Position numbers and translations under genes: made by a program
Part shown: positions 2,803-45,682 of the stretch, piece after piece
Layout of the letters: each line of letters starts with the position of its first letter
How positions within the stretch are numbered: the stretch's first letter is position 1
Source: a virus
Lineage: Duplodnaviria > Caudoviricetes
Direction: 5' to 3' (one strand)
DNA length: 64,000 nucleotides
IMG/VR virus record: IMGVR_UViG_3300028832_000097
Span: 64,001-128,000 of that record
Notes under the pieces: generated by a model
Database searches by the model: none
Seen by the model: only the letters and a program-made list of their open reading frames with translations
Told to the model about the DNA's origin: nothing

Positions 2803-3231
2803 TTAATGAATATAATCCCAGAGCAACTTTGTTAATATGCGTACTCGGGAATACTTATGTGAGTCTAATTGTGAATTGTATATGTATGTAAGGTTGTGTA
2901 CGTGCATACTGCTATTTATACTGGCGAGTACGCTGTTTCTCACATCAATGTCATAGATATCATTTAACCATAACCGTATACGCTCATCACGTTTTTCGGA
3001 TTCTGATTTATAATTTATTATAGATCGTGGTTTATCACCAGTTAACAACCACGAGAGCGCCTCCGCATGAGATATATTACCGCAATACAGATTAGATAGT
3101 GCACGGGCCTGAGCGCCAATGATACTAACTGCACCATATTTACCTACAGCTTCGCATACTTGTGTATAATATTCGTTGTTTGTCCAATAATCCATATTTC
3201 CGCGCACATAGTAATTAAAGGAATGTATCAA
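2803..3231 (-). CDS. Hypothetical protein
   Basis: ORF in minus-strand operon, overlapping the upstream gene end. Confidence 0.6.
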   Translation of the reverse strand: MIHSFNYYVRGNMDYWTNNEYYTQVCEAVGKYGAVSIIGAQARALSNLYCGNISHAEALSWLLTGDKPRSIINYKSESEKRDERIRLWLNDIYDIDVRNSVLASINSSMHVHNLTYIYNSQLDSHKYSRVRILTKLLWDYIH

Positions 3232-3592
3232 TGTTATCAGTTACTTCTGGAAAATGATCTTTAGTAAATTTAACGAGTCGCTTATGAAATTCGTCTACGT
3301 TAGTAATGTGTTTTTCCGGTTCAATTCCGCGATTTCCTTCACCGGGTAAAAGAAATGTAATATCAGAATACCCACCATCGGCATCTTCTAGATATCGAAC
3401 CTTGAACAAGACCTTAGACTTATCTATAGGTACACCGGCTCGATTACACGGCATGACCTTTGCAACAATATGACCATCTGAAGTTATCTCAGGAGTATCC
3501 AACAAGAATCCGCCCTTCTTTAGTTGATATGAAAGTTTATTGAATCCTTGTCTAAGTTGCTTGATAGTTTTGGTTAGTGCAGTTAATGACAT
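3215..3592 (-). CDS. Hypothetical protein
   Basis: ORF with AGGAG RBS. Confidence 0.7.
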   Translation of the reverse strand: MSLTALTKTIKQLRQGFNKLSYQLKKGGFLLDTPEITSDGHIVAKVMPCNRAGVPIDKSKVLFKVRYLEDADGGYSDITFLLPGEGNRGIEPEKHITNVDEFHKRLVKFTKDHFPEVTDNIDTFL

Positions 3593-3677: not shown

Positions 3678-4082
3678 TTACTTTCTAATAGCCCTTCTAG
3701 CAGCTCTACGAGCAGCTGTTGAAGCTTTAACAGCTCTGCGAGCAGTTCCCTTTGTAGAAGCCTTGATAGCCTTCTTACCAAGAACCTTTGTAGAAGCTTC
3801 GAGGAGCTCCTCATCACCTTCAGGTGATACTGTGAACTCGTCCTCGCCTACTGCGAATGTAACAGTGCCGTCATCCTCAACTGTAACGTCAACAGGCTCA
3901 CCAGCGATCTCAGCTACGAGCTCAGCAACATCCTCAGTCTCGAAAAGAAGCTCTGTAGCAGCTTCGTCAACTGTGATTTCGTCCTCTTCGATGTCTACGT
4001 CTACATCCTCAACAGGTGCATCAACATTAACATCAATCTCTTCATCTGCAACGATACGCTTACGATTCTTTGAAATGAACAT
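3678..4082 (-). CDS. Acidic prohead core/scaffold-like protein
   Basis: Acidic body, basic tail and repeated IVAD/LEAS/IKAS/VKAS motifs like those in the capsid propeptide; adjacent to the neck gene. Confidence 0.55.
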   Translation of the reverse strand: MFISKNRKRIVADEEIDVNVDAPVEDVDVDIEEDEITVDEAATELLFETEDVAELVAEIAGEPVDVTVEDDGTVTFAVGEDEFTVSPEGDEELLEASTKVLGKKAIKASTKGTARRAVKASTAARRAARRAIRK

Positions 4083-7162: not shown

Positions 7163-7203
7163 AGTTAACACCTCCTCGTCATCTATAACGATTCCATAGA
7201 TGT

Positions 7204-7233
7204 AAAATAGCTTGATACAAAAGTACCAAGCTG
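7204..7233 (-). terminator. Rho-independent terminator closing the leader-peptide gene cluster
   Basis: CAGCTTGGTAC-TTTT-GTATCAAGCT-ATTTT. Confidence 0.7.
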
Positions 7234-7279: not shown

Positions 7280-7579
7280 TTAATCTTTACGATACAGCCC
7301 GTGTGTATGCTCCGGCAGGTAGTACACAATATCCTGATACATTGCTTGCCAATCAATGCTACTATACGCATTAGACAGTGCACGTCCAATAACAGTACGA
7401 AGTTCATAATCCGGAATGTTTTTCAACAATTTAGAAAATACGAATTCTCGAATTTCTTTATCAGTGTACTGCGGAATGTCCTTGGGTGCATCAGAATCTA
7501 CATACATACTAGGGTTGTTAGAAGAATCTGAAGATATGATTATACAACTATTAGGGTGTTTTGTAAATGTACGTTTCAT
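7280..7579 (-). CDS. Leader-tagged small protein (putative capsid cargo)
   Basis: N-terminus MKRTFTKHPNSCIIISS. Confidence 0.7.
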   Translation of the reverse strand: MKRTFTKHPNSCIIISSDSSNNPSMYVDSDAPKDIPQYTDKEIREFVFSKLLKNIPDYELRTVIGRALSNAYSSIDWQAMYQDIVYYLPEHTHGLYRKD

Positions 7580-7587
7580 AGCTCCTC

Positions 7588-7905
7588 TTAGTCCTCTATT
7601 CTAGTATAATCACCTGCTTGAATACCTTTAACTTGTCTTTCATAAGTACTCATAGCAACATGCACAGCTTCGTTAAGTTGTTTAGAAGCTTGTAAGAGTT
7701 GATGGGCTTTATCGGAATCTCCGGCATTATGTGCTTCTACGTAAGTATCCCATACAATATCAGAATCTGAATACTGTACAAAATTATATAATGTCATCTC
7801 AGCATCTTTTAGATTCTGCCAAATATCGTCCCAGGTCACTCCGTCAATACTAGAAGCTGCAATAACTTTTTGGTTTGCAGGTCGAGTAGTAAATTGTCGT
7901 TTCAT
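7588..7905 (-). CDS. Leader-tagged small protein (putative capsid cargo)
   Basis: N-terminus MKRQFTTRPANQKVIAASS. Confidence 0.7.
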   Translation of the reverse strand: MKRQFTTRPANQKVIAASSIDGVTWDDIWQNLKDAEMTLYNFVQYSDSDIVWDTYVEAHNAGDSDKAHQLLQASKQLNEAVHVAMSTYERQVKGIQAGDYTRIED

Positions 7906-7928
7906 TTTTTATGTCCTCCGGTTACAAG

Positions 7929-8378
7929 TTATCTAGATTGAAGTTCCTTCTTTGCAAGTGCCCTAACTCCACGATACTTACTAGCTTCTGCTTCGGTTTC
8001 TAATATTGAATATGGAGTATTAGGGTTTGTTATCACAGCTCGAACTATGAGTTCATTTGAATCTTTGTATTCGTCCCAAATATCAATAAGTATATCTGCA
8101 GGTGTATTTATATTTCCAGCAATACTTTCGTTTAATTTAAAAGAATCAAATTCAGTCTGCGTAGCTAAGTAAGTTAAAAATTCTGGATCCTTTGAATAAG
8201 CTGCAGAGTACAGAATTGCGTTGACAACAGCTGTACGAGGACCTGTAGTAGAATCCTGCAAGATGTACCCAAAACCTTGTTCCTCAAGTCTACGGATCAA
8301 TTCACTAGAAAATGTGGTAGGATTCAATATAGATGCTTCAATGTTGTTATTGGGATACGTAGTAAATGTTCGTTTCAT
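7929..8378 (-). CDS. Leader-tagged protein with leucine-rich-variant/HEAT-like repeats
   Basis: N-terminus MKRTFTTYPNNNIEAS; repeats IAGNINTPADIL and VITNPNTPYSIL. Confidence 0.7.
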   Translation of the reverse strand: MKRTFTTYPNNNIEASILNPTTFSSELIRRLEEQGFGYILQDSTTGPRTAVVNAILYSAAYSKDPEFLTYLATQTEFDSFKLNESIAGNINTPADILIDIWDEYKDSNELIVRAVITNPNTPYSILETEAEASKYRGVRALAKKELQSR

Positions 8379-8381
8379 GTA

Positions 8382-8864
8382 TTATTCCTCGTCTTCATTC
8401 TCATCTTCGTCAGGTATTCTTATCTGTATTGACCAATTCCATACATATGATCCCGCAAGATCTTTAGACATTTTCCACTCTTCTGCAACATCTTCAACTT
8501 TTTGATTGTAATCGCTGTAACCGCCACATTCATCAAGAAATTCGAATATTTCAGGCTCAAGACTCGTATCGTATTCAAAGACCTGAAGATAATTAGTAAA
8601 TTTAGCAAAGTCGTTGAAGCATCCTAACCCAGTTAATTCTGCTTCATAGTCACGGGCCCATTCATCACCTCGAAGATCCTCTAAATCATGAAGTAGATCT
8701 TGATAATCGTCATAACTAAGATCTAGCTCACTTGCTAAATAGTATGCCCAATCATCTGCATCGTATTCGTTAAGAGACTTAGAATCAAATCCATATGGCT
8801 GTACATCTTCCTGCCAAGACGCCTTTACATAAGATGAGGGGAGTTTCGTGAATTGTTTTTTCAT
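8382..8864 (-). CDS. Leader-tagged highly acidic protein
   Basis: N-terminus MKKQFTKLPSSYVKAS; Asp/Glu-rich body. Confidence 0.7.
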   Translation of the reverse strand: MKKQFTKLPSSYVKASWQEDVQPYGFDSKSLNEYDADDWAYYLASELDLSYDDYQDLLHDLEDLRGDEWARDYEAELTGLGCFNDFAKFTNYLQVFEYDTSLEPEIFEFLDECGGYSDYNQKVEDVAEEWKMSKDLAGSYVWNWSIQIRIPDEDENEDEE

Positions 8865-9502
8865 ACTTCTTGCCTCTTCACAAAATAATTCAGTTGCTTA
8901 TTCCAATATCTTAACCATTCATCTAATGTACTCTGAACATCAGATGTCTGATTAGGATATGCAAATGTTATTGCATCTATGTATGATTGAATATAGCGAG
9001 TTATGATATCCAAACTCTCCTGAAATTCGTAAGACTGTACCTTGATATATTCGTTACACCATTCAGGTTCCGGTACTGCACCGCACTTTTCTACCAGTAG
9101 CTCACCCAAAGTATCAATCTCCTTGATAAGCTCCTCATACATCTCTTCTGAAAGTAGATGGAGCTTCATCATATCATTGCCCTTCGCCATCCAATGTAAA
9201 ATGTATAAGTTACGATACATTGTGATTCCGGACTTGAATGCTTGATCTAAGCTTTCACACGGATCAATAGGGCAATCTGCACATTTCTTAATATCAAAAC
9301 CTTCATCGTCTACAACTACAGCAAAGGTCTGTGGAGAAGTAGTTAAAGCATTACAAAATTCAGGGCTTTCAACTAAGCACTCTACATCGTCTAAAGTATC
9401 TGAAGGACTATAATTGGAATTTAGGCCTAATATGCTAACCTCATTTGAACATTCTATTTTATGAAGTTTGATTAGGAATTTATTAGAATATAATTTATCC
9501 AT
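8861..9502 (-). CDS. Dps/ferritin-like protein with N-terminal extension
   Basis: LHWMAKGNDMMKLHLLSEEMYEELIKEIDTLGE matches the Dps signature HW..G....LH...EE.Y.......D...E. Confidence 0.8.
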   Translation of the reverse strand: MDKLYSNKFLIKLHKIECSNEVSILGLNSNYSPSDTLDDVECLVESPEFCNALTTSPQTFAVVVDDEGFDIKKCADCPIDPCESLDQAFKSGITMYRNLYILHWMAKGNDMMKLHLLSEEMYEELIKEIDTLGELLVEKCGAVPEPEWCNEYIKVQSYEFQESLDIITRYIQSYIDAITFAYPNQTSDVQSTLDEWLRYWNKQLNYFVKRQEV

Positions 9503-9556
9503 ATGTTGTGCCTCTCCTATTCATTGTATTTTTTAACACTGTATAAATGTATCTTT

Positions 9557-9796
9557 TTATTCAAACACCTCATATAATTCATATGCATCTTCTGTATGAT
9601 CAGTAACTTTAGCTTGTCGTATCCAGTCATAATATTTCTTAGGTAAGGTTATTCCATCGTATGTTCGTTTCTTCCACCCTGCACCATTAGTATAATTTAC
9701 TGTATACATATCATATCCCTGAGATTTATCTACAGAGTGTACTATGTAAGATACTTCATAAGGGATTGCTTCTGATGATCTAATGTATCTTTTCAT
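9557..9796 (-). CDS. Leader-tagged small protein
   Basis: N-terminus MKRYIRSS. Confidence 0.7.
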   Translation of the reverse strand: MKRYIRSSEAIPYEVSYIVHSVDKSQGYDMYTVNYTNGAGWKKRTYDGITLPKKYYDWIRQAKVTDHTEDAYELYEVFE

Positions 9797-9799
9797 AAA

Positions 9800-10246
9800 T
9801 TAATCTCCAAAATCAAAATTATCTAATACATGATTACCTGTCAAATTAGGAACATAATAATGTGAACTAGGTATTACATCATATCTTTGATTTGCAATAC
9901 TGAATTCCTCTGCAATCAGCTTTATTGCATTTTTATCTTCCGCAATTTCTTGACTACAGATTATTTCAAACACTTGTGACCTAATATCATAAACTACTCG
10001 ACCTCTTTCTATTGATCGGTACCCTTTTGGTATCATATCAATAGCTCCAGGTAACTGCTTTTTAATAATAGATTCCCATTCAGTTATATGATTTTTTGTT
10101 TTGCTGAATTGTAGATAACCTCGGTCATCAACAGCATCTTCAATAGGGCAATATTCACCAACAACAGTATTGTCATAAAACCACCAGATACCTACATTAC
10201 CCTCGTGTTGAGGCTTTTCTTCTACTGTTCTGATGTATCTTTTCAT
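9800..10246 (-). CDS. Leader-tagged hypothetical protein
   Basis: Start re-assigned to ATG 10246: MKRYIRTVEE; body GIWW...H...W...RGRVVYD. Confidence 0.7.
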   Translation of the reverse strand: MKRYIRTVEEKPQHEGNVGIWWFYDNTVVGEYCPIEDAVDDRGYLQFSKTKNHITEWESIIKKQLPGAIDMIPKGYRSIERGRVVYDIRSQVFEIICSQEIAEDKNAIKLIAEEFSIANQRYDVIPSSHYYVPNLTGNHVLDNFDFGD

Positions 10247-10254
10247 GCTGACCC

Positions 10255-10485
10255 TCACAAAGTGACTAATTGAGAACCGTCTCCGAAACTTTCGTAAGTC
10301 TCTTCAGCAGTCCCATCTTTCCAGTAGTAGTTGATACGCACACGATCATTTGATTGAAGTGTTTCTGTTTTGATATAATCACTGGACGCATCTAGGGTGA
10401 TTACGACATCCTCGCCGTCTTGATTAGTACCTGTAACTACTGAGTTTCCGTTAAGTAAGTCTAATAAATACTCATAAGTTATCAT
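10255..10485 (-). CDS. Hypothetical protein
   Basis: ORF with GAGG RBS. Confidence 0.65.
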   Translation of the reverse strand: MITYEYLLDLLNGNSVVTGTNQDGEDVVITLDASSDYIKTETLQSNDRVRINYYWKDGTAEETYESFGDGSQLVTL

Positions 10486-10502
10486 AGTAAACCCTCATGT
10501 AT

Positions 10503-10871
10503 CTATAAACATATGTAAGGTTGGCTTCCGTGAGGTCTAACACCAAAAATATCCTTATGCCAATCAGAGTAATAGTCCCAAGTATGTGGGTCAATCTCTC
10601 CGTAAGATTTTCCAGAAATATGCTCGTTGACCCATGCGTTAAACTTATCAATATTCTCGTTGTAGTATTCCTCATCAGAAATAGCAGTGAGATTAGAGTA
10701 TGTTGCATAAGCTGCATCCCATATGTTATACTCATCAATGTACCCATTGCAGTCTAACACTGCGGTAACTTTCTGCATGAGAACCTTGCGATCCTGACAA
10801 GACATCTTCATGATATCCTCATAGCTAACTGTGTACTCTTTAATGAGCTGATCTAATATGATGTTATTCAT
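10503..10871 (-). CDS. Hypothetical (probably early) protein
   Basis: ATG 10871 with GAGGAGG RBS; C-terminal YYSDWHKDIFGVRPH; early-type promoter upstream. Confidence 0.7.
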   Translation of the reverse strand: MNNIILDQLIKEYTVSYEDIMKMSCQDRKVLMQKVTAVLDCNGYIDEYNIWDAAYATYSNLTAISDEEYYNENIDKFNAWVNEHISGKSYGEIDPHTWDYYSDWHKDIFGVRPHGSQPYICL

Positions 10872-10910
10872 AGTAACAACCTCCTCTTGGAACATTGATG
10901 TATATTGTTA

Positions 10911-10952
10911 ATTATAGACGGATGGTCCAGGAATTAAAAGAGAGAATTTTGG
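10911..10952 (-). promoter_or_regulatory. Putative early promoter, copy 1
   Basis: CCAAAATT-ctc-TCTTTTAATT-N11-CGTCTATAAT; same conserved blocks at 61623-61663. Confidence 0.7.
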
Positions 10953-10961
10953 AAAATAATA

Positions 10962-10999
10962 AAATTCAAATAATTCCTGTCGAAAGATTGGTCTATTTT
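10962..10999 (+). repeat. Left copy of ~40 bp imperfect inverted repeat flanking the 636-aa gene
   Basis: AAATTCAAATAATTCCTGTCGAAAGATTGGTCTATTTT versus the reverse complement of 13003-13042; 14-bp exact core TCCTGTCGAAAGAT. Confidence 0.8.
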
Positions 11000-12908
11000 A
11001 TTTTGTTACATGAATCACATATTCGTTGTTCACGCCTAAATGACTTTTGTTTTGAATAGTTTCAACAACGTATTTTTCCCAACCCGGATCAACTACCTTA
11101 CAAACCATAGTAGCATCTACGAAGTTAGGCGCATTTTTCATTGCGATTTCAAGCCATTGACATTGTGTTAAGGATTGTGCAGATTCGTCAAATCCTTCGA
11201 AATTGTAATCTTCAAAACACCTACCAGTATTTGGATCAGAATATGGTGGGCAAATAAATATAGAACATGATTTGTCTGTTTTGAATTCACGACCGTCACA
11301 CCATTCAATATGTGTTTTACCTACTTCATCATACCATTGTACCAGGTCTTTATTGTAGTCACAAGCAATATATTCTCTGTTGAGTTCTTTACAAGCATCG
11401 GCTCTAGCGCCCCAACCTGCAGCTAGGTCGTATATGTTGTCACTGCTACAGTAGTTTGTTATGAGTGATTTTGCACGCTCTTTGCTAAACCATGAAGGCT
11501 GTTTACATGTTCGTGTTACATTCATCGCAGTTAGTATTTGTTTGCTATCTATGAACCCACCAGAATAGTTAATACGATTGAGTATCATTTTCCAACGAAT
11601 TTCAGGATCATAAAACGCTTCATGTGAACTTAATTTTCCATCTACTCTTACATCGTAGAAGCATTTTGGGCGATCTTTAGCATACGGAAACTTTGGACTT
11701 TCTTTGAATAATTCAAAATCTACGCCTATTAAAGGATTAGGGCATTTATCTGAATATTTTAACCCATTGGATTCACTACTATTCGGCTGACCAAATATCG
11801 AATTCACCTTATCAGTTTTATCTGTGATAACAATGACATGATTCTGCCTATATACATCTAATTTTGCAGATATTGGTACTGTCTGTGCATAATCATACAC
11901 TCCATCTAATAAATGTGGACCTTTGACTTCAAGTAGTATATTATCTACTTTGAAATCAATAAGTGTAATGTGTTGTTTACCTGCATATTCAAATGTTAAG
12001 GGCACTTGTGTCTCAATATTGTCGTAGCCTAGATTCAACAAGAAATTATAGAACTGTAATTCGTAATTACTATCAAACCGCTTACCGTCCTTTGCAATAT
12101 TATTTTCTTTATTCAACATCATTCTCTTATGAATCTCTGGAGATTGTGACACATACTCTACCCCAAATTTCTCTCTGTTAGTGTCCTTAGATTTCTGCTT
12201 GACTTCATCTAATTGAAATACATTATCTACACCCTTGTTTTTGAGTGTTTCCGCCCGCTTGTTTTTAACTACTTCAGAAGATAAAAAATGTCTAGTCCCA
12301 TAGTTTTCTAATGAAGTTGCCTTAACTCTTTGTTTATACTCGTCTGTTTGCGTGTACCAATCAACTCCATGCTTCTTTCGATTAGTTTCCTTGATTTTTT
12401 CTACAGAACTATGAAGTTGCATAGGATTATCAACCCCGTGTTTTGATTGCATAGTGTTCCGAAGTGTAGATACCATAGCTTCAATATCCTTATTTTCAGA
12501 AGCTAACTTATACCTACATGTCTTACTACAAGTTTTAACACTAGAATCTCGCCTTACATCTATTTCAAATTGATTACCGCACACTGCGCAAGTTTGATAA
12601 TGCGGATTCTTGCAATAAACATCTCTAACAGAGGATGGCTCAAATTCTTCACCACACCACTTACATATCTTTTTAGAAAGTTTTGCAGAAGTCTCACGCT
12701 TGGATTTTATAAACGCAACTTGGCATTTTTCACTACAAGTTTGCTTTGTATCGGAAGTAGTACAATGTGTTTCAAATTCATTTCCGCAATAAGCACATTT
12801 CCGCAAAATGATAGAATTACAACACTTCTGTCTAGTGGAATTTGGATGGAATCGCTTACCGCACAATATACATGTATACAGCAAATCTGGATCAACTATC
12901 TTTCCCAT
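10998..12908 (-). CDS. Fusion: CxxC Zn-finger repeats + (K)xGV repeats + PD-(D/E)XK endonuclease + amino-DNA-methyltransferase-like domain
   Basis: Multiple CxxCGxxF/CSxxC; KHGVDNP, NYGTRH, KFGVEY repeats; FDSNYE...IDFKVDNILLEVKG; YDLAAGWGAR (SAM-binding motif I) and FICPPY (motif IV-like). Confidence 0.75.
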   Translation of the reverse strand: MGKIVDPDLLYTCILCGKRFHPNSTRQKCCNSIILRKCAYCGNEFETHCTTSDTKQTCSEKCQVAFIKSKRETSAKLSKKICKWCGEEFEPSSVRDVYCKNPHYQTCAVCGNQFEIDVRRDSSVKTCSKTCRYKLASENKDIEAMVSTLRNTMQSKHGVDNPMQLHSSVEKIKETNRKKHGVDWYTQTDEYKQRVKATSLENYGTRHFLSSEVVKNKRAETLKNKGVDNVFQLDEVKQKSKDTNREKFGVEYVSQSPEIHKRMMLNKENNIAKDGKRFDSNYELQFYNFLLNLGYDNIETQVPLTFEYAGKQHITLIDFKVDNILLEVKGPHLLDGVYDYAQTVPISAKLDVYRQNHVIVITDKTDKVNSIFGQPNSSESNGLKYSDKCPNPLIGVDFELFKESPKFPYAKDRPKCFYDVRVDGKLSSHEAFYDPEIRWKMILNRINYSGGFIDSKQILTAMNVTRTCKQPSWFSKERAKSLITNYCSSDNIYDLAAGWGARADACKELNREYIACDYNKDLVQWYDEVGKTHIEWCDGREFKTDKSCSIFICPPYSDPNTGRCFEDYNFEGFDESAQSLTQCQWLEIAMKNAPNFVDATMVCKVVDPGWEKYVVETIQNKSHLGVNNEYVIHVTK

Positions 12909-12997
12909 AATGCAAGGACCTCCTGTTATATGTATAATAACGATTTTATAGAAGGTTTTGAATAGAGGTGATATTCAGCGGTACTCTGTTTTATTAC

Positions 12998-13042
12998 AAA
13001 AAAAAATAGGTCCCATCTTTCGACAGGACCTACTTTGAATTT
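12998..13042 (-). terminator. Major capsid gene terminator, overlapping the right copy of the inverted repeat
   Basis: TAGGTCCTGTC-GAAA-GATGGGACCTA-T9. Confidence 0.9.
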
Positions 13043-13097: not shown

Positions 13098-14570
13098 TCA
13101 GAATACGCCGAGGATCTTACCGCTGACGATTGTATCAGGGTTGACAATCTTTGTGCCGTACATCGTACAATATCCTTGTTGTACAGAGCTATTAGCAAGA
13201 CCAATTGCATCCGTATTTGTCAGAGGCATATATTCTCCGAAGAGAGCACTGTTTCTTCTGATGTCTGCGGACTTGCAGCACATTACCCAAGTATCAGGCT
13301 GATAGTTAGGATCAACGATGATATCGAAGTTGTCAAGTCTACCGGACTTGTAAGGACCAACGTTCTCAGAAGCGCCTTCTGCTACGAAACCGTTCACCAT
13401 ACCAAGGTATGTGTTAACGTTTGTACCAACGATGAGCTTGTTAGGCTGAGCAAGTCTTGTTGATTGATAGATAGAAGCAGCTGCCTGGTTCAGCTTAAGC
13501 TTGAACATGTTGAGGTAATCAGAAGGTACTACAGAACCTGAAAGTACAGGAGAAGCATCGAAGTTGAACTGAGGCTTCAATGTAGCAGCATCTGCGAGTT
13601 CCTTGAAGCAAGCAGAGTTGATCTCAGCTGTGAGCTCTGAGAAAGCAGCTTCCTTAGCGATGTCGCCGATGTTTGCACCGTATTCCTGCTGAGCAGCAAA
13701 TGCGGAGAAGACAGACCAATAGCAAGCAAGCTGATGAGCTTCTGCTACCATGTTGATCTCATCAAGCTGGAGGTAGCCCTTACCCATCTGTGCGCCATAC
13801 TCATAACCGTAACCACCGTTACCAGGTACACGAGGACCAACGTTCTCGTTGTCGTACTGATATGTACCGGATACTACGTTACCAGCAGCAGCGGCGATAA
13901 CACCAGAAGAGAAGCTAATAGCGCCTGTTGAATAATTGATGTAACCTACAGGTGTTGTAGAACCGCTCTGGCAAAGATTTCCGTTACCGTCATCAACGAA
14001 GAGTGTTGTTGCACCAGATGCTGTGTACTTGATTGTAACAGAATTAGGAAGTACAGGAGTATAAACGAGAACCTGTGAGTCTGTGATAGCTGTACCCTCA
14101 GACATGATTTCGTTCTTTACAACCCTACCTGTGAAGTTAGGATCAATACCCTGTCTGTTTGCGAAAGGACTAGAGAATACATCTCCTGCCTTTGTTTCGC
14201 CCTTTGTATTCTCAGCGATGAACTTGAAGTAAGGAATGAGCTGCTGACGAGACTTCATTGCAACTGAACCAAATACGTCAAGAACGAGGAGCTTCTGTAC
14301 GAAGAGAGGAAGCAGCTCAAGGAAATCAGGACGAGCCATGATGTTTGTTGTGTTAGTAGCAGCTGTAACGGGCTGGAGCTGTCTAGCGTTAGCCTTTAAC
14401 TGCATAGCAAACTTTCTCTGCTCGGGAGAAAGGCTTGCCATAATAGAAGATGAAGGTGTTGTAACCTTGCGAGGAGCTGCAGCAGAAGTAACACTTCTAG
14501 AAGCCATGATAGGTCTTCTTGCATAGCTAGCAGGAGCAGCAGCTCTACGTGTAACTTTAGTAATAGCCAT
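13098..14570 (-). CDS. Major capsid protein (T4 gp23-like) with basic N-terminal propeptide
   Basis: VAMKSRQQLIPYFKF, L.CYWS.FS..AAQQEYG, ELTAEIN, GEYMPL, YCTMYG pattern of the gp23 family; follows the protease gene; strong terminator. Confidence 0.88.
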   Translation of the reverse strand: MAITKVTRRAAAPASYARRPIMASRSVTSAAAPRKVTTPSSSIMASLSPEQRKFAMQLKANARQLQPVTAATNTTNIMARPDFLELLPLFVQKLLVLDVFGSVAMKSRQQLIPYFKFIAENTKGETKAGDVFSSPFANRQGIDPNFTGRVVKNEIMSEGTAITDSQVLVYTPVLPNSVTIKYTASGATTLFVDDGNGNLCQSGSTTPVGYINYSTGAISFSSGVIAAAAGNVVSGTYQYDNENVGPRVPGNGGYGYEYGAQMGKGYLQLDEINMVAEAHQLACYWSVFSAFAAQQEYGANIGDIAKEAAFSELTAEINSACFKELADAATLKPQFNFDASPVLSGSVVPSDYLNMFKLKLNQAAASIYQSTRLAQPNKLIVGTNVNTYLGMVNGFVAEGASENVGPYKSGRLDNFDIIVDPNYQPDTWVMCCKSADIRRNSALFGEYMPLTNTDAIGLANSSVQQGYCTMYGTKIVNPDTIVSGKILGVF

Positions 14571-14595: not shown

Positions 14596-16080
14596 TTATA
14601 GTGTAACAAGTCCGTCGTCTGTATCACCTAATGAGGAAATCTCCTGCATAGCAGTTTCTTCAATAGCTGTTGTCGACTTAATCATCTGCTTCAATTGCGA
14701 AACAGAAGTCGAACCTGTTACAGCGACGTTGTTTAGAGATACTCCAACTGCGCTTGCGTAGAGATTAGCATAAGCATCTTGGTACTCCGCAATGATCTTA
14801 TGTGCAGACTCTAATTCAGATCTAAGGTGTGAAAGCTCTGCATCTCGGTTTGATGAGGCAGTTTGGATACTACGTGCAGCAGTGACAGTTTCATTGAGCT
14901 TCGTTTCCAGATCTGCAATGTTATCTTCCTTAGCCTGAATGGCTTGCGTAGAGGATTGGATCTTCTGTTTATATTTAAGGTTATCAGCCTTTAATATATC
15001 GATTTCTTTCTGCAACGCTTCTATTTTATTAGCATATTTTGAAGATTGCGTGTCCATTGTAGCTTGTATATCTTGAGATGCTGTAATAGATCTCTTCAAC
15101 TCTTGATTATTCTTAGCGATTTGAGATTCTAAAACAGAAACTTTATCACGGAGTTTTGTAGATGCTTGAATTGCTTTAGCCCGGTCACTAGAAATAGATG
15201 CTAACTGCATGTCCATATCATGTAACTGTGCGGACATTATCCTTTCCATTGTCTTCTGTTTACGCTTATGAGCCTTAGATTCATCGGCAAGTGACTTCTT
15301 AAGAGATGCAATAACTACATCTTTTTCTTTACATGCTTGCGAAGCTTCTACATAAAGTTCTGTAAGTGCTTCAATCTTATTACCTTCGACATCAACTACA
15401 TCTTCTAGTTCTTCAGAAGTAATTGCTGCCTTCTTTGCTTCAAGTTTTCTAAATGTATCAGACTGCCTAGCAAAACATGACTGAATAACTTCAATGGACT
15501 CCTTTGTATTAAGACCATCTATGTTATTATCAACTGCTGCACAAATCTTCTTATATTTCTGCCTACTTTCGGTATCAGTAGCTGCAGCAATTTCAGTAAA
15601 TGTTGGAATTGATTCAGGGAATGCAGGGAATGTTACAATATCAAACCCGCGGAATACAAATGTTTCAGGATCAACGGAATTACCTACAATATCTCCTGCA
15701 CCTCTAACAGAGATTCCAAATGTTACTCCTGCATCAATGAATGTTTTTACTATTCTACCAACAGGAGTGTCAACAAGGTCAAATTTTCCATATATTTTAC
15801 CACTATCATCAATATGACCTTCAGTCATAACGATACAAGCATCTTGGAAGTTCATACAATTAGGATCTTCCGGATGTCCGAGATAGCCAATATACCATTT
15901 TTTCTCAATTGCCTCTTTGTAATCATCCGATTTAAATACGTTCTCCCATACCTCACGAGTAATGTCTAATCCATTTTTATTCGTGATGTTTGCATCAGCG
16001 CATTCGCCTTCAAATGTCCCTAAGATTGCTTTGTCCTTTACATCTGCAACAATTGGAGATTTAACTGCCATATTACTCAC
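14596..16080 (-). CDS. Prohead core protease (T4 gp21-like) fused to a coiled-coil scaffold
   Basis: ITNKNG, GYLGHP (His), TPVGRIVK, FGISVRGAG (Ser), FDIVTFPA; ~300-aa helical C-terminus. Confidence 0.88.
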   Translation of the reverse strand: MSNMAVKSPIVADVKDKAILGTFEGECADANITNKNGLDITREVWENVFKSDDYKEAIEKKWYIGYLGHPEDPNCMNFQDACIVMTEGHIDDSGKIYGKFDLVDTPVGRIVKTFIDAGVTFGISVRGAGDIVGNSVDPETFVFRGFDIVTFPAFPESIPTFTEIAAATDTESRQKYKKICAAVDNNIDGLNTKESIEVIQSCFARQSDTFRKLEAKKAAITSEELEDVVDVEGNKIEALTELYVEASQACKEKDVVIASLKKSLADESKAHKRKQKTMERIMSAQLHDMDMQLASISSDRAKAIQASTKLRDKVSVLESQIAKNNQELKRSITASQDIQATMDTQSSKYANKIEALQKEIDILKADNLKYKQKIQSSTQAIQAKEDNIADLETKLNETVTAARSIQTASSNRDAELSHLRSELESAHKIIAEYQDAYANLYASAVGVSLNNVAVTGSTSVSQLKQMIKSTTAIEETAMQEISSLGDTDDGLVTL

Positions 16081-22769: not shown

Positions 22770-23465
22770 TTATTTACTGTACTTAATAGTATTTCCTTCT
22801 ATTGTGCGAGTGATGTATGTAGAAGATAGTACCACCTTGTCCGCTTCTAATATCTCTGCCTTTGTAGCTCCTAAGAAATATTCTTGATATCCATTTGCAG
22901 ATTCTCGAAGTATTGTATATCTGATAGTAGACGGTCCTTTATCATACTTCAATATGAAATCATCAATAATTACTTTGTTCCAATCAAATGAATCATCTGA
23001 AGTTATTCTAAATTCTACGGCATTACCAAATATAGATATTTTAACATAATTGTCCTTACAATAGGTGTACCACATTTCGTTTAGATCTTCAAAATCCTCA
23101 ATGAGATATTCTAACTCATTGGCAGTGTAAGGGCATTTACTGCCGAGCCCTACATATTGTTTCAAAATGTTCGTGTATTTAAGCTCGCAATAAATATCAA
23201 ATCGCGTTCTATCAGCAATTGTAGGAGTTAATGTGTGTAAGTATTCATACAAACAGTACCAATAAACAACTACACCATCCTCTTTATCTGCTCCAGCGTT
23301 TTCTATAAGAAAATCAATGTCAGTAGGGCAAAGATGCTGTATTCCTCGTGACATATAAGTAGTAGAAGGAACATGTAAATCTACTGAATATAAATTTCCT
23401 GAACGGTCTAACAAATAAGAACCCTTTTGTAATGATATGTTAGCTGTGATATATCGCTTCATCAT
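22770..23465 (-). CDS. Leader-tagged hypothetical protein
   Basis: N-terminus (M)MKRYITAN. Confidence 0.7.
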   Translation of the reverse strand: MMKRYITANISLQKGSYLLDRSGNLYSVDLHVPSTTYMSRGIQHLCPTDIDFLIENAGADKEDGVVVYWYCLYEYLHTLTPTIADRTRFDIYCELKYTNILKQYVGLGSKCPYTANELEYLIEDFEDLNEMWYTYCKDNYVKISIFGNAVEFRITSDDSFDWNKVIIDDFILKYDKGPSTIRYTILRESANGYQEYFLGATKAEILEADKVVLSSTYITRTIEGNTIKYSK

Positions 23466-24864: not shown

Positions 24865-26232
24865 CTAATTAATGCTATATAAAAGTACCATAGATTTTAT
24901 ATTTTTCTTACTATAAACAGCCTTAAGTATAGAATCTTCTAGCTGAACTCGGTATTTCAATCCCGAGTTTTTAATTTGTATATATAACGATTTTATATCA
25001 TCAAAAGCACCAGAATAGTTCAATTCTTCCAATGACTGGACTATTTTAGTTTTTGCTTCTGCAGATATATCAAACATTATATTTTTATTAATAGGTTTAT
25101 CTTTCTTAGAATATTGATGGTGGAATTCGTAAGCTCTGCGACCTAATTCTATAGAAGCTAAACACATGTCAGGTAATCCAGTATCTCGATAGATTAGATT
25201 GCCCTCAAATGAAGAGTAGTTAGCTACTACTTTATATAATCTAATCCCACATCTATCACAATATTTTTCAATCAAAGAATAGAAAATATTTCTATTCCAT
25301 TGGTTATTGACTAATCTATTAAATCGACGACCTCTTCCAGTATCATTAGATATAATTTCTAACTTCTCAATTGCAAATAGTTCACATTTATAATGCTTAG
25401 CTATCTCTACTAGAAATTTAGCAGAATCTATATTTTCATATGTTCTTTTATTATTTAGGTATATACGTTCTATGTCATATGAAGAAATATGAAGAGCACT
25501 ATCAGCAGCGTTAATCTGTCTATTAGATATAACACCGGCATCTATTACTGTCTTCTGAGTAGAAGATACCCAATCTACTACTGACCACCCAATATAATTA
25601 GGATTTAGATCTATAGCAAATACTCTATCAACTTTATGTGACGGGCTAACTTCAGAGAGTTCATTAAATGTGATATAGATGTACTTCAAATCTAGCTTAT
25701 ATGTAATAGGTATACTACAACTGTTCTGTGATGCTATTAACTTCTGTATATCATGTCTATAGTTCTTCCTAAGTTTGGGTAGTTGTAATGTAATATGCGT
25801 GTGTCTGTCCGGCTTAAATAATATCGCACTCTCAGATTTAATTTCAAACTTACGATTACCTAATTTACAAGCTTCTCCAATGGATAATAGTGGTTGCAAT
25901 CTATTTGAATGGTATTCTTGCTTCGATATGTTACCCTTACATCTTTGAATATAGTTGTATCTCCCTCCAAATATTACTTTTGTTCTTCCCCTGAGTTGTT
26001 TAGCTTCATATTGAGCCGAGTTTAAAAAATGAGAATCTATAAACACATTATTCATAGATTTTTGCATTTCAGTAAGTTGTTTAGTAGATAATTTAAAATT
26101 ATTATCGCATAGTCTATTATATGTAAATCGAAGTACATTATTATAGTTAGCAATATACTTACTAATTATATCAAGTGACTCTGAGCTATAAGGTAACTTA
26201 ATTGTTCGTATTGACACTACTATCTTCCTCAA
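24865..26232 (-). CDS. tnpB: TnpB-like RNA-guided RuvC nuclease lacking the Zn ribbon
   Basis: VLRFTYNRL, FAIDLNP (RuvC-I), FAIEKL (RuvC-II), NYSS, LPDMCLASIELGRR (RuvC-III). Confidence 0.8.
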   Translation of the reverse strand: MRKIVVSIRTIKLPYSSESLDIISKYIANYNNVLRFTYNRLCDNNFKLSTKQLTEMQKSMNNVFIDSHFLNSAQYEAKQLRGRTKVIFGGRYNYIQRCKGNISKQEYHSNRLQPLLSIGEACKLGNRKFEIKSESAILFKPDRHTHITLQLPKLRKNYRHDIQKLIASQNSCSIPITYKLDLKYIYITFNELSEVSPSHKVDRVFAIDLNPNYIGWSVVDWVSSTQKTVIDAGVISNRQINAADSALHISSYDIERIYLNNKRTYENIDSAKFLVEIAKHYKCELFAIEKLEIISNDTGRGRRFNRLVNNQWNRNIFYSLIEKYCDRCGIRLYKVVANYSSFEGNLIYRDTGLPDMCLASIELGRRAYEFHHQYSKKDKPINKNIMFDISAEAKTKIVQSLEELNYSGAFDDIKSLYIQIKNSGLKYRVQLEDSILKAVYSKKNIKSMVLLYSIN

Positions 26233-26821
26233 GTTCTTTTCTAATCTTATTAAGTTTTCGCCTATGTGAATATGACTTCATAGTAAAATAATGAATAATT
26301 GAGATTAAATCTTCAGTTAATTCCTGTTCGTATGTTCTATTATCTAAGGCATCATTTAGAACCATAATTTGTGTGCCATAATACTTAAAAATCAGCTGAA
26401 GTGTATCAAAATTAAATCGGGTTAATCTGTCCTTATTTTCAATTACCAACAAGCCAATTTCTCCTTTAACCACTCTTTCAATGAGTTTTTGAAATCCTTT
26501 TCGATCAGCATCCATACCAGACTTTATATCTTCTATCTGCTCATCTAATTCGATGCCTTTACTTATACAGTAATTATATATTCGTAAAGTCTGTTCTTTA
26601 AGTTGATCTTTTTGAGCTTGCGTAGATACCCTAGAATAAGAAATATTAACTTTGTGATTACGATTAAATTTCTGACCCAAGAATTCATATACAGATTCTT
26701 CATCATAATTATATTGACCATTCTTTAATCTATCTACTTTAATAATGCCCGATTTGACATACTTGCATAATGTCACTCTTGAAATACCTAATCTATCTAA
26801 TACTTCATTAGCTTTCATCAT
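26198..26821 (-). CDS. tnpA: IS607 serine recombinase (MerR-like HTH + resolvase)
   Basis: LGISRVTLCKYVKSG; YSRVST..QK.QL..Q; EDIKSG; ENKDRLTRF; QELTEDLISII. Confidence 0.95.
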   Translation of the reverse strand: MMKANEVLDRLGISRVTLCKYVKSGIIKVDRLKNGQYNYDEESVYEFLGQKFNRNHKVNISYSRVSTQAQKDQLKEQTLRIYNYCISKGIELDEQIEDIKSGMDADRKGFQKLIERVVKGEIGLLVIENKDRLTRFNFDTLQLIFKYYGTQIMVLNDALDNRTYEQELTEDLISIIHYFTMKSYSHRRKLNKIRKELEEDSSVNTNN

Positions 26822-45184: not shown

Positions 45185-45682
45185 TTACTTCAACCCTAGA
45201 AATATAGGTTCAACCAATTTTCTATATTCGTCTACTCCATGATCTATTTTATCTAAGAGCAACGGCATTGTAGCGTCCTCAATCGCACAACAAATTCTCA
45301 TGAGCAATTTTGCTGCTTCAGGTGTTACCTCAAATTCTGGATAATTACCTTTACCGTCATGATTGAATTTACCTGAACGATTATCCGCTAAGAAGCCATA
45401 CAACTCTTTCACATAATCGCTATTTGTATCACCCATGAAACAAAATAGGTTGTTGTGTAACATCTCCTTACTAGGTTTTTTAGTCTTTGGCTTGAGCGTG
45501 AAATCGTCTGCTGCTTGAATCCACTTTGCTACAGAAGTTATCCACCCATTGACATCATCTGGTCGAATATCTGAATACATGAGAAGTTTGATAATATGTT
45601 CAATGATAACACTAGAGTAAGATCTCATAAGAGATCCTGCTCTGTCTTTGTCGGTAGACATAGCTAATATGTATCGTTTCAT
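45185..45682 (-). CDS. Leader-tagged DUF29-like protein inside the tRNA island
   Basis: MKRYILAMS; IIEHIIKLLMY...NGWITSV. Confidence 0.7.
   Translation of the reverse strand: MKRYILAMSTDKDRAGSLMRSYSSVIIEHIIKLLMYSDIRPDDVNGWITSVAKWIQAADDFTLKPKTKKPSKEMLHNNLFCFMGDTNSDYVKELYGFLADNRSGKFNHDGKGNYPEFEVTPEAAKLLMRICCAIEDATMPLLLDKIDHGVDEYRKLVEPIFLGLK

Follow-up and report, generated by a model that had tools for sequence, protein, structure and literature searches.

In the window studied here, a 64,000-nucleotide stretch (bases 64001-128000) of an IMG/VR virus record of 170,977 bp that is rated complete, six genes lying after the major capsid gene of an uncultured, T4-like phage of about 171 kb from the cattle gut encode proteins that share an N-terminal leader, hereafter the tag. 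The reading that we favor, with a probability of roughly 0.6, is that the tag is a T4-style capsid-targeting propeptide, removed by the head protease and carried by a swappable set of cargo proteins. Because the tag ends in what appears to be the motif that the head protease of this phage cuts, it is probable that the six cluster proteins enter the capsid in the manner of the T4 internal proteins.

A short N-terminal tag shared by unrelated proteins

A crude gene call over the whole genome gave 239 proteins (89% coding), with nearly all genes on the minus strand. A sequence-only reading of the window had listed eight tagged N-termini, those of six open reading frames (ORFs) of the cluster and of two outliers starting at 23465 and 45682. 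All eight were located where it had placed them, on the minus strand, each behind a GGAG-type ribosome site. The gene starting at 10246 also has an upstream GTG at 10258, but a ribosome site is found only with the ATG; the ORF starting at 23465 begins with Met-Met, and its tag may start at 23462. The eight genes are listed below, with lengths in amino acids (aa) and "cargo" standing for the predicted role.

7280..7579, minus strand: long-form tagged cargo gene, 99 aa; tag of 16 residues, ending I-I-S before Ser
7588..7905, minus strand: long-form tagged cargo gene, 105 aa; tag of 17 residues, ending V-I-A-A before Ser
7929..8378, minus strand: long-form tagged cargo gene, 149 aa; tag of 15 residues, ending I-E-A before Ser
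8382..8864, minus strand: long-form tagged cargo gene, 160 aa; tag of 15 residues, ending Y-V-K-A before Ser
9557..9796, minus strand: short-form tagged cargo gene, 79 aa; MKRYI-R-S before Ser
9800..10246, minus strand: short-form tagged cargo gene, 148 aa; position 7 is Thr, not Ala/Ser
22770..23465, minus strand: outlier, tagged protein of 230/231 aa, adjoining baseplate genes
45185..45682, minus strand: outlier, tagged protein of 165 aa; position 8 is Met

The short form comprises 7 to 8 residues, MKRYI-[RK]-[SA]-[SA], and the long form 13 to 20 residues, M-[KR]-x-[FY]-[TR]-x-x-P followed by a spacer of 1 to 6 residues and by [IV]-x-A-[ST]. The exact start MKRYI was found in 19 of the 239 called proteins, while K-R-Y-I did not occur once at an internal position in 49,178 residues. 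Scanning all six frames of the 171 kb with a weight matrix for tag positions 2 to 8 returned 29 matches, every one of them on the coding strand and immediately 3' of a start codon, so that the tag is strictly N-terminal across the genome. The profile of these short forms reads M, K, R, Y, I, [RK], then position 7 and a small residue at position 8, after which conservation ends. At position 7 the 29 tags have Ser (14), Ala (10), Thr (3), or Cys (2), that is, Ser or Ala in 24 of 29 against a background of 14%. The arginine of the tag is encoded by AGA (8), CGA (9), CGC (1), or AGG (1), the isoleucine by ATT, ATC, or ATA, and the serine by five codons, although AAA was the second codon in 15 of 19 tags; the DNA upstream of the tagged genes is dissimilar. 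This synonymous variation, together with the dissimilar upstream DNA, indicates that selection acts on the peptide. The statistics of the tag exclude a chance origin.

The shared leader is thus real, and its extent exceeds the eight N-termini first listed: about 29 short and about 20 long forms are spread over the whole genome, giving 42 tagged proteins by a strict rule and about 45 to 50 of the roughly 239 proteins, or roughly one fifth of the genes, when looser variants are included. The bodies that follow the leader are unrelated, as had been proposed, and blastp among the tagged-protein bodies of the genome found no similarity at E<1e-3. Tagged proteins range from 65 to 427 aa, 35 of 40 being no longer than 175 aa. 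Pfam domains were found in only three of them (a BspA-type LRR, an LRV/HEAT repeat, and an ART-PolyVal ADP-ribosyltransferase [ART]), three further ones match PHROGs without an assigned function, and few have homologs in four complete relatives. A text search of the literature for the tag MKRYI found no paper.

The tag ending and the head protease

Three proteins of the head module bear on the tag ending:

13098..14570, minus strand: major capsid protein, 490 aa (Pfam Gp23, 57 bits; PHROG "major head protein")
14596..16071 (16080 with the longer start), minus strand: prohead protease fused to a coiled-coil scaffold, 491/494 aa (Pfam Peptidase_S77, PHROG)
3678..4082, minus strand: conserved, very acidic head-module protein, 134 aa; its basic N-terminal leader ends in I-V-A, and two I/V-K-A-S sites lie at the C terminus

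The S77 protease is present in one copy in the genome and was assigned by Pfam (34.3 bits, cut-off 27) and by PHROG ("head maturation protease"). Because a PDB sequence search with the whole protease-scaffold returned only coiled-coil noise, a fold search was used. An AF2 model of the first 175 residues, the protease domain encoded at 15547-16071 on the minus strand, built from 32 relatives (predicted local distance difference test 85), was nearest to T4 gp21 (5JBL; TM score 0.64-0.69, 24% identity), and the proteases of herpesviruses (pseudorabies virus [PrV], human cytomegalovirus, herpes simplex virus, Kaposi's sarcoma-associated herpesvirus, Epstein-Barr virus, and varicella-zoster virus) ranked fourth and lower, with probabilities of 0.75-0.99 and TM scores of 0.40-0.49. 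One histidine (H66) and S121 were invariant among the 32 protease domains; with this single invariant His, the Ser-His-His triad of assemblins was not found among them.

The motif [IV]-x-[AS], which the sequence-only reading had seen repeated in the capsid propeptide and in the protease-scaffold, does occur above the level of shuffled sequences in the propeptide and in the scaffold part. The phage's own predicted capsid propeptide of about 80 residues has I-M-A-S twice and I-M-A-R at the junction, the mature protein being predicted to start behind I-M-A at residue 79; four-residue sites number 4 in these 80 residues, compared with 1.2 after shuffling (P=0.02). The scaffold part holds 20 sites against 9.9 ± 2.6 in shuffles (P<0.0005), while the protease domain shows no excess. 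Along the protease-scaffold protein, conserved sites lie at the N terminus, after the protease domain ([IV]-A-A-S), and within the scaffold, and a further one (V-T-A-S) precedes the acidic tail at the C terminus; the motif is also found on conserved head-module proteins. We further compared 37 distinct capsid propeptides from relatives whose capsid proteins are 57 to 73% identical. Capsid homology to relatives begins near residue 98 to 114, and the preceding region of about 80 residues is highly variable, ending in an invariant junction, I-[MA]-A before [RK]-P, in all 37. Ala or Ser stood at +2 of 51% of the Ile/Val residues, against an Ala plus Ser content of 26%, and each propeptide carried on average 3.8 [IV]-x-[AS] sites against 2.2 in shuffles; [ILV]-x-E was found in none of the 37.

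The strongest test of [IV]-x-[AS] as the putative protease motif is a comparison between clades. A profile of the protease domain was searched against 1.84 billion representatives and returned a close clade of 85 (at least 215 bits) and a second tier at 110 to 132 bits, made up of protease-scaffold fusions that include the lineage of the cultured phages HSE3, LIS04, GXN1, and SP-15. The nearest cultured relatives of the phage are the Bacillus phages HSE3 and SP-15, the Listeria phage LIS04, the Streptococcus phage GXN1, T4-like cyanophages, and pelagiphages, with 27% identity in the capsid protein and 31 to 38% in the protease. Motifs at homologous positions were counted in 77 close-clade and 48 second-tier representatives:

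junction after the protease domain, [IVL]-A-[AS]-[ST]: close clade 68/77, second tier 0/48
junction after the protease domain, [LIVMT]-x-E-[SN]: close clade 0/77, second tier 30/48
N-terminal extension of the protease, [IV]-x-[AS]: close clade 39/77, second tier 14/48
N-terminal extension of the protease, [LIVM]-x-E: close clade 6/77, second tier 35/48

The capsid propeptide of the cultured second-tier phage HSE3 contains four [LIVM]-x-E sites. These counts at homologous positions suggest that a T4-like Glu has been replaced by Ala/Ser in the close clade, which thus appears to have switched its cut residue. Scanning viral contigs with the protease profile for more distant clades recovered the same clade only. 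The tags end in the junction motif of their own clade, [IV]-x-[AS], and not in the gp21-type [LI]-x-Glu. In Bacillus phage HSE3, of which 41 kb were read, no comparable shared tag was found.

Two ortholog families, the 74- to 88-aa family of genome position 60555 and that of the acidic 134-aa protein, allowed the site to be followed across relatives. In both, leaders are anywhere between 7 and about 45 residues long, the two forms of the tag interchange on the same body, and some members carry basic segments in tandem, two or three in number, that each end in [IV]-x-A-S. Even so, the column of the site is aligned directly ahead of the conserved acidic mature part.

Proposed capsid loading and its alternatives

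In T4, the capsid targeting sequence attaches to the scaffold core, and gp21 cleaves it off (PMC9026906, PMC3012670); the internal proteins of T-even phages are diverse, having only this sequence in common (PMC3012670). The tag on IPI-III comprises 10 residues, MKTYQEFIAE (sequence as printed in 10.1101/2021.01.19.427310), of which residues 4 and 7 target while residues 8 and 10 govern processing, and T4 Alt is a packaged ART with a 7-residue propeptide (PMC9026906). The phage studied here shares with T4 a gp23-type capsid, a gp21-type protease, a variable locus, and a short N-terminal tag on unrelated, fast-evolving proteins that ends in the apparent protease motif. An M-K-x-Y start, with residue 4 a targeting residue in T4, and an ADP-ribosyltransferase among the tagged proteins, matched by the 7-residue Alt propeptide, are resemblances rather than tests. 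The phage differs from T4 in the end motif ([IV]-x-[AS] against [LI]-x-E), in having about 45 to 50 tagged proteins against four, in its two tag lengths, in the fusion of protease to scaffold, and in the charge of the cluster cargo.

On this model, the basic, aromatic-containing stretch (M-K-R-Y... or M-K-x-F-T-K-x-P...) would tether the protein to the assembling scaffold core; after closure of the shell, the single gp21-type protease would cut after the Ala/Ser of [IV]-x-[AS], and the mature protein would be freed within the head, able to exit with the DNA. The preference of the protease would have moved in this clade from Glu, as in T4, phiKZ, SPN3US, and the sister clade, to Ala/Ser. We infer targeting, cleavage at the motif, packaging, and ejection from the sequences. 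The earlier claim that the tag loads proteins into the head has partial and indirect support in the modular N-terminal tag, its ending in the apparent protease motif, the fast gene turnover, and a variable slot by the head genes; the family labels given to two of the tagged proteins did not hold.

Several points weigh against capsid loading. The characterized gp21-family proteases all cut after Glu (L/I-x-E in T4, S/A-x-E in phiKZ, and A-x-E in SPN3US; PMC9026906, PMC10052503), and a non-Glu specificity would be without precedent within S77. The enrichment in the 37 propeptides is only about 1.75-fold, in sequences that are interrelated. When the protease-scaffolds were aligned, [IV]/[AS] pairs conserved at +2 were no commoner than pairs at other spacings; since this pair count was unremarkable, weight was placed on the position of the sites and not on their number, and the composition-corrected count in the single scaffold and the comparison between clades took its place as arguments. 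Position 7 is Thr or Cys in some tags, that of the 148-aa cluster protein among them. The relative G001 (loci L062-L070, e.g., 75123-78900 and 107547-109700) encodes 15 proteins of 101 to 151 aa that start with M-S-I-Y-V-K and then share x-x-G-A-x-x-L, mostly not paralogs by blast, and in these the Ala/Ser cut position is variable; they may have diverged as a family, or their tag may be a variant that still targets but is not cut. The tagged share, one fifth of the proteome, greatly exceeds that of T4, and the cluster cargo is acidic (isoelectric point [pI] 4.0-5.0), in contrast to the basic internal proteins of T4. The promoter classes of tagged genes are mixed, and some of these genes lie behind the promoter-like ATCGTTAT class, which also stands ahead of replication genes. 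Finally, cutting and packaging are inferred here for an uncultured phage.

Two alternatives are unlikely but have evidence of their own. The tag could be a substrate of the head protease on proteins that are not delivered, being auxiliary core or scaffold parts that are degraded or retained, or proteins trimmed at the N terminus for activation. The acidic 134-aa protein and the Dps-like protein of relatives do bear the same leader and site, and in its acidity the cluster cargo resembles the core peptides of T4. Most tagged proteins, however, are orphans specific to this genome, which suits structural core parts poorly, and one of them is an ADP-ribosyltransferase of the "polyvalent protein" type, a class tied to injected proteins. 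With similarly low probability, the tag serves a process outside the head (a chaperone, an N-degron for a host protease, or localization), and the likeness of the motifs is a coincidence. The G001 family lacks Ala/Ser at the cut position, so that Y-[IV]-K alone can be conserved, and several tagged genes stand behind the promoter class common to replication genes. Against this, the phage genome encodes no second protease: ClpP was not found in it, and neither was Prp (PF04327), for which control genomes scored, although a host might supply a Prp. Moreover, the tag has no hydrophobic or lipobox segment, its end motif appears to shift by clade exactly as the protease's own junction does, and the motif is aligned ahead of the mature part in orthologs.

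Far less probable is a nucleic-acid feature at the 5' end, either a translation-initiation optimum or a recombination linker for gene shuffling: the frequent AAA second codon, the tight gene packing, and the quick turnover would fit, but the Arg, Ile, and Ser codons vary, upstream regions are dissimilar, and orthologs keep the peptide motif while the length of the tag changes. It is equally hard to credit that the tagged genes form one old paralogous family with bodies diverged past recognition: a true 9-member paralog group does occur among the roughly 28 MKRYI-K-[AS] genes found in one 25-kb stretch of the relative G004 (loci L080-L088, 69000-93000), but in the genome studied here the bodies show no similarity, lengths run from 65 to 427 aa, and the domains differ (LRR, LRV/HEAT, and ART), and a 7-residue N terminus that outlasted all other similarity would itself require selection on the tag.

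Under the capsid-loading reading, other systems offer partial parallels. Like this phage, phiKZ, 201phi2-1, and SPN3US have a gp21 homolog and many head-internal or ejected proteins with N-terminal propeptides that contain multiple, redundant sites (PMC9026906, PMC10052503), as is documented for phiKZ (PMC9026906). By contrast, their proteases cut after Glu ([SA]-x-E), and their propeptides are mostly long (111 to 254 residues) and have no short tag in common; these systems were verified with mass spectrometry.

The protease-scaffold also resembles herpesvirus UL26/assemblin (family S21) in its fold and in the placing of the protease N-terminal to the scaffold. As with the R and M sites of UL26, one predicted site lies between protease and scaffold and another before the C-terminal tail. 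The general consensus of herpesvirus proteases is hydrophobic-x-Ala before Ser/Thr; the phage motif agrees with it, and Tyr is found at P4 of the R site as in the tags. The phage enzyme differs in belonging to S77 and not S21 (9% identity to assemblins) and in its lack of the triad, and no role of the motif as a portable tag for cargo is known from herpesviruses. The sites of PrV assemblin are Y-L-Q-A/T and V-Q-A/S (PMC4498786), and the UL26 protease-scaffold architecture has been described (PMC8537868).

With encapsulins the phage has in common a portable peptide and, among the tagged head proteins of its relatives, a Dps-like protein. Encapsulin cargo-loading peptides are short and portable and load unrelated, often ferritin-like cargo into an HK97-fold shell; they are usually C-terminal and uncleaved, and the system has no scaffold, protease, or DNA, whereas the phage tag is N-terminal and putatively cleaved. 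In staphylococcal phage 80alpha, the host protease Prp cleaves the N termini of the capsid and scaffold proteins at an L27-type motif, F-F-A/S. An N-terminal leader on head proteins and an Ala-Ser cut, predicted here, are common to both, but our phage has no Prp cysteine protease in its genome, has an S77 protease of its own, and shows a different motif context.

A broader and more tentative proposal is that a whole clade of uncultured, animal-gut phages of the T4 superfamily has retuned a gp21-type protease to Ala/Ser and, in addition, loads about 50 mostly orphan proteins by a 7-residue tag, or its longer variant, to be delivered along with the DNA; new cargo would then be tried out at a hot spot, the slot that follows the capsid gene. 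If true, this protease would be the first of the gp21 family to have a non-Glu specificity, and the maturation proteases of phages and herpesviruses would be linked by a substrate motif besides their fold. The capsid-targeting tag would scale from a handful of proteins in T4 to dozens, about 50 orphan genes would become candidates for the earliest-acting phage proteins, for example, in host takeover or counterdefense, and a simple sequence rule would find such genes in metagenomes. A 7-residue cleavable tag with a defined protease would also offer a compact alternative to the T4 tag for capsid loading. The idea of a delivery tag is not new, the T4 capsid targeting sequence having already been used for protein delivery (PMC9026906).

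The cluster, its flanking elements, and the variable locus

The genes from 10895 to 7280 are tightly packed, with gaps of -4 to 54 nucleotides. This unit would be a hypervariable cargo locus after the capsid gene, holding six cargo genes, four with the long form of the tag and two with the short, together with a relocated domain of the head module and two ORFs that lack the tag. The untagged members are as follows:

8861..9502, minus strand: untagged Dps/ferritin-like protein (DUF5856), 213 aa, in the middle of the cluster (Pfam and PHROG matches)
10255..10895, minus strand: two small, acidic ORFs without a tag that open the transcription unit, one of 76 aa and one of 122 or 130 aa

The predicted mature parts of the six tagged cluster proteins measure 8 to 17 kDa. 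That of the 99-aa protein has 83 aa and a pI of 5.0, that of the 105-aa protein 88 aa and a pI of 4.35, and that of the 160-aa protein is very acidic, with 42 Asp+Glu in 145 aa and a pI of 4.05. Pfam and PHROGs assigned none of the six to a family, apart from a weak PHROG match of the 105-aa protein to a function-unassigned family. The ESM Atlas gave no usable neighbor for the acidic 160-aa protein. The 149-aa protein, in a homology search of 5.8 billion proteins, found only itself; it contains two N-x-N-T-P motifs at a distance of 29 residues, whose likeness to LRV is purely visual, and Pfam finds no LRV domain in it, contrary to its first label. The DUF29 label of the 165-aa outlier likewise fell, Pfam finding neither DUF29 nor any other family. 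An ortholog of the 148-aa protein in the relative G003, at another locus, bears Y-V-K-A-S.

In relatives, a conserved protein of the head module, about 350 aa long and with an N-terminal leader and site, has DUF5856 as its C-terminal two thirds, an arrangement that points to a Dps-like protein inside the capsid. At the syntenic place in the window lies a 125-aa ORF (3215-3592, minus strand) without a blast match in the relatives.

The cluster had been described as lying between a putative late promoter at 10517 and a terminator at 7204; a promoter-like element and a hairpin were found at about these places. The promoter-like elements and the hairpin are as follows:

10502..10522, minus strand: AACCTT-N9-TATAGA, promoter-like, 37 nucleotides before the 76-aa ORF; the site previously placed at 10517
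10911..10939, minus strand: TTTTAATT-N12-GTCTATAAT, promoter-like, upstream of the first ORF of the unit
7209..7232, minus strand: 10-bp hairpin followed by A-U-U-U-U, directly 3' of the last cargo gene (free energy -13.8 kcal/mol, z = -5.8)

The hairpin is likely a terminator or a stabilizer of the RNA end. The element at 10502..10522 is a near-member of a recurrent class, [AC]ACCTT-N7-13-TATA[AT][AT], and falls outside its strict matches through its TATAGA. Across the whole genome, the strict class has 12 sense matches against 1 antisense match; nine lie within 80 nucleotides of a start, including those of a baseplate-wedge gene and of three tagged genes, and other large ORFs are also preceded by it. 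Pfam found nothing in the genes downstream of the AACCTT-type motif, and the label "late" given to this promoter was not confirmed.

The TTTTAATT-N12-GTCTATAAT element occurs in the genome as three near-identical copies of about 40 nucleotides (window 61629, window 10917, and genome position about 7527, minus strand), two of which continue with ATAATTGTAGG. These copies could be a repeated regulatory cassette; they resemble the mobile promoter cassettes of T4-type phages (PMC2839356). A third motif, (A)ATCGTTAT[AT], lies at 7192, past the hairpin, at 12944, and at about 35 other places genome-wide (minus strand), typically some 40 nucleotides before starts, and precedes clamp, clamp-loader-like, replication, and homing-endonuclease genes. 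Its core 8-mer is intergenic in 25 of 36 copies, and the motif is probably a phage-specific promoter class. Directly 3' of the capsid gene, a strong 15-bp hairpin with a U-run (13003-13036, minus strand) has the look of a classic terminator behind a highly expressed gene, and the cluster therefore probably needs promoters of its own.

At the DNA level no phage record was close: when the cluster was compared by megablast with 50,697 such records, none matched. The same DNA occurs in runs of bovine gut metagenomes that belong to two studies and may be its source. Between the capsid gene and a conserved gene pair (135 aa and 236 aa), 52 relatives have from none to about 14 ORFs; these are orphans, homing endonucleases, and, in several of the relatives, genes that carry variant tags such as M-K-I-Y-V-K-[SAG]. 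No homologs of the six tagged cluster proteins were found in the loci of these 52 relatives. The number of tagged genes per relative varies from about 6 (G001-G003) to about 30 to 50 in genomes of similar size. The tagged set looks like fast-turning-over accessory cargo.

Directly after the capsid gene, the window carries a 636-aa fusion of zinc-finger, homing-endonuclease-like, and methyltransferase-like parts (10998-12908, minus strand), and homologous or related genes of about 600 aa fill that slot in many relatives, sometimes in two copies. In the structural region, a serine-recombinase-type "transposase" (phrog_6620, E = 5e-49) overlaps a 455-aa ORF (24865-26821, minus strand) and has the look of an IS607-like insertion.

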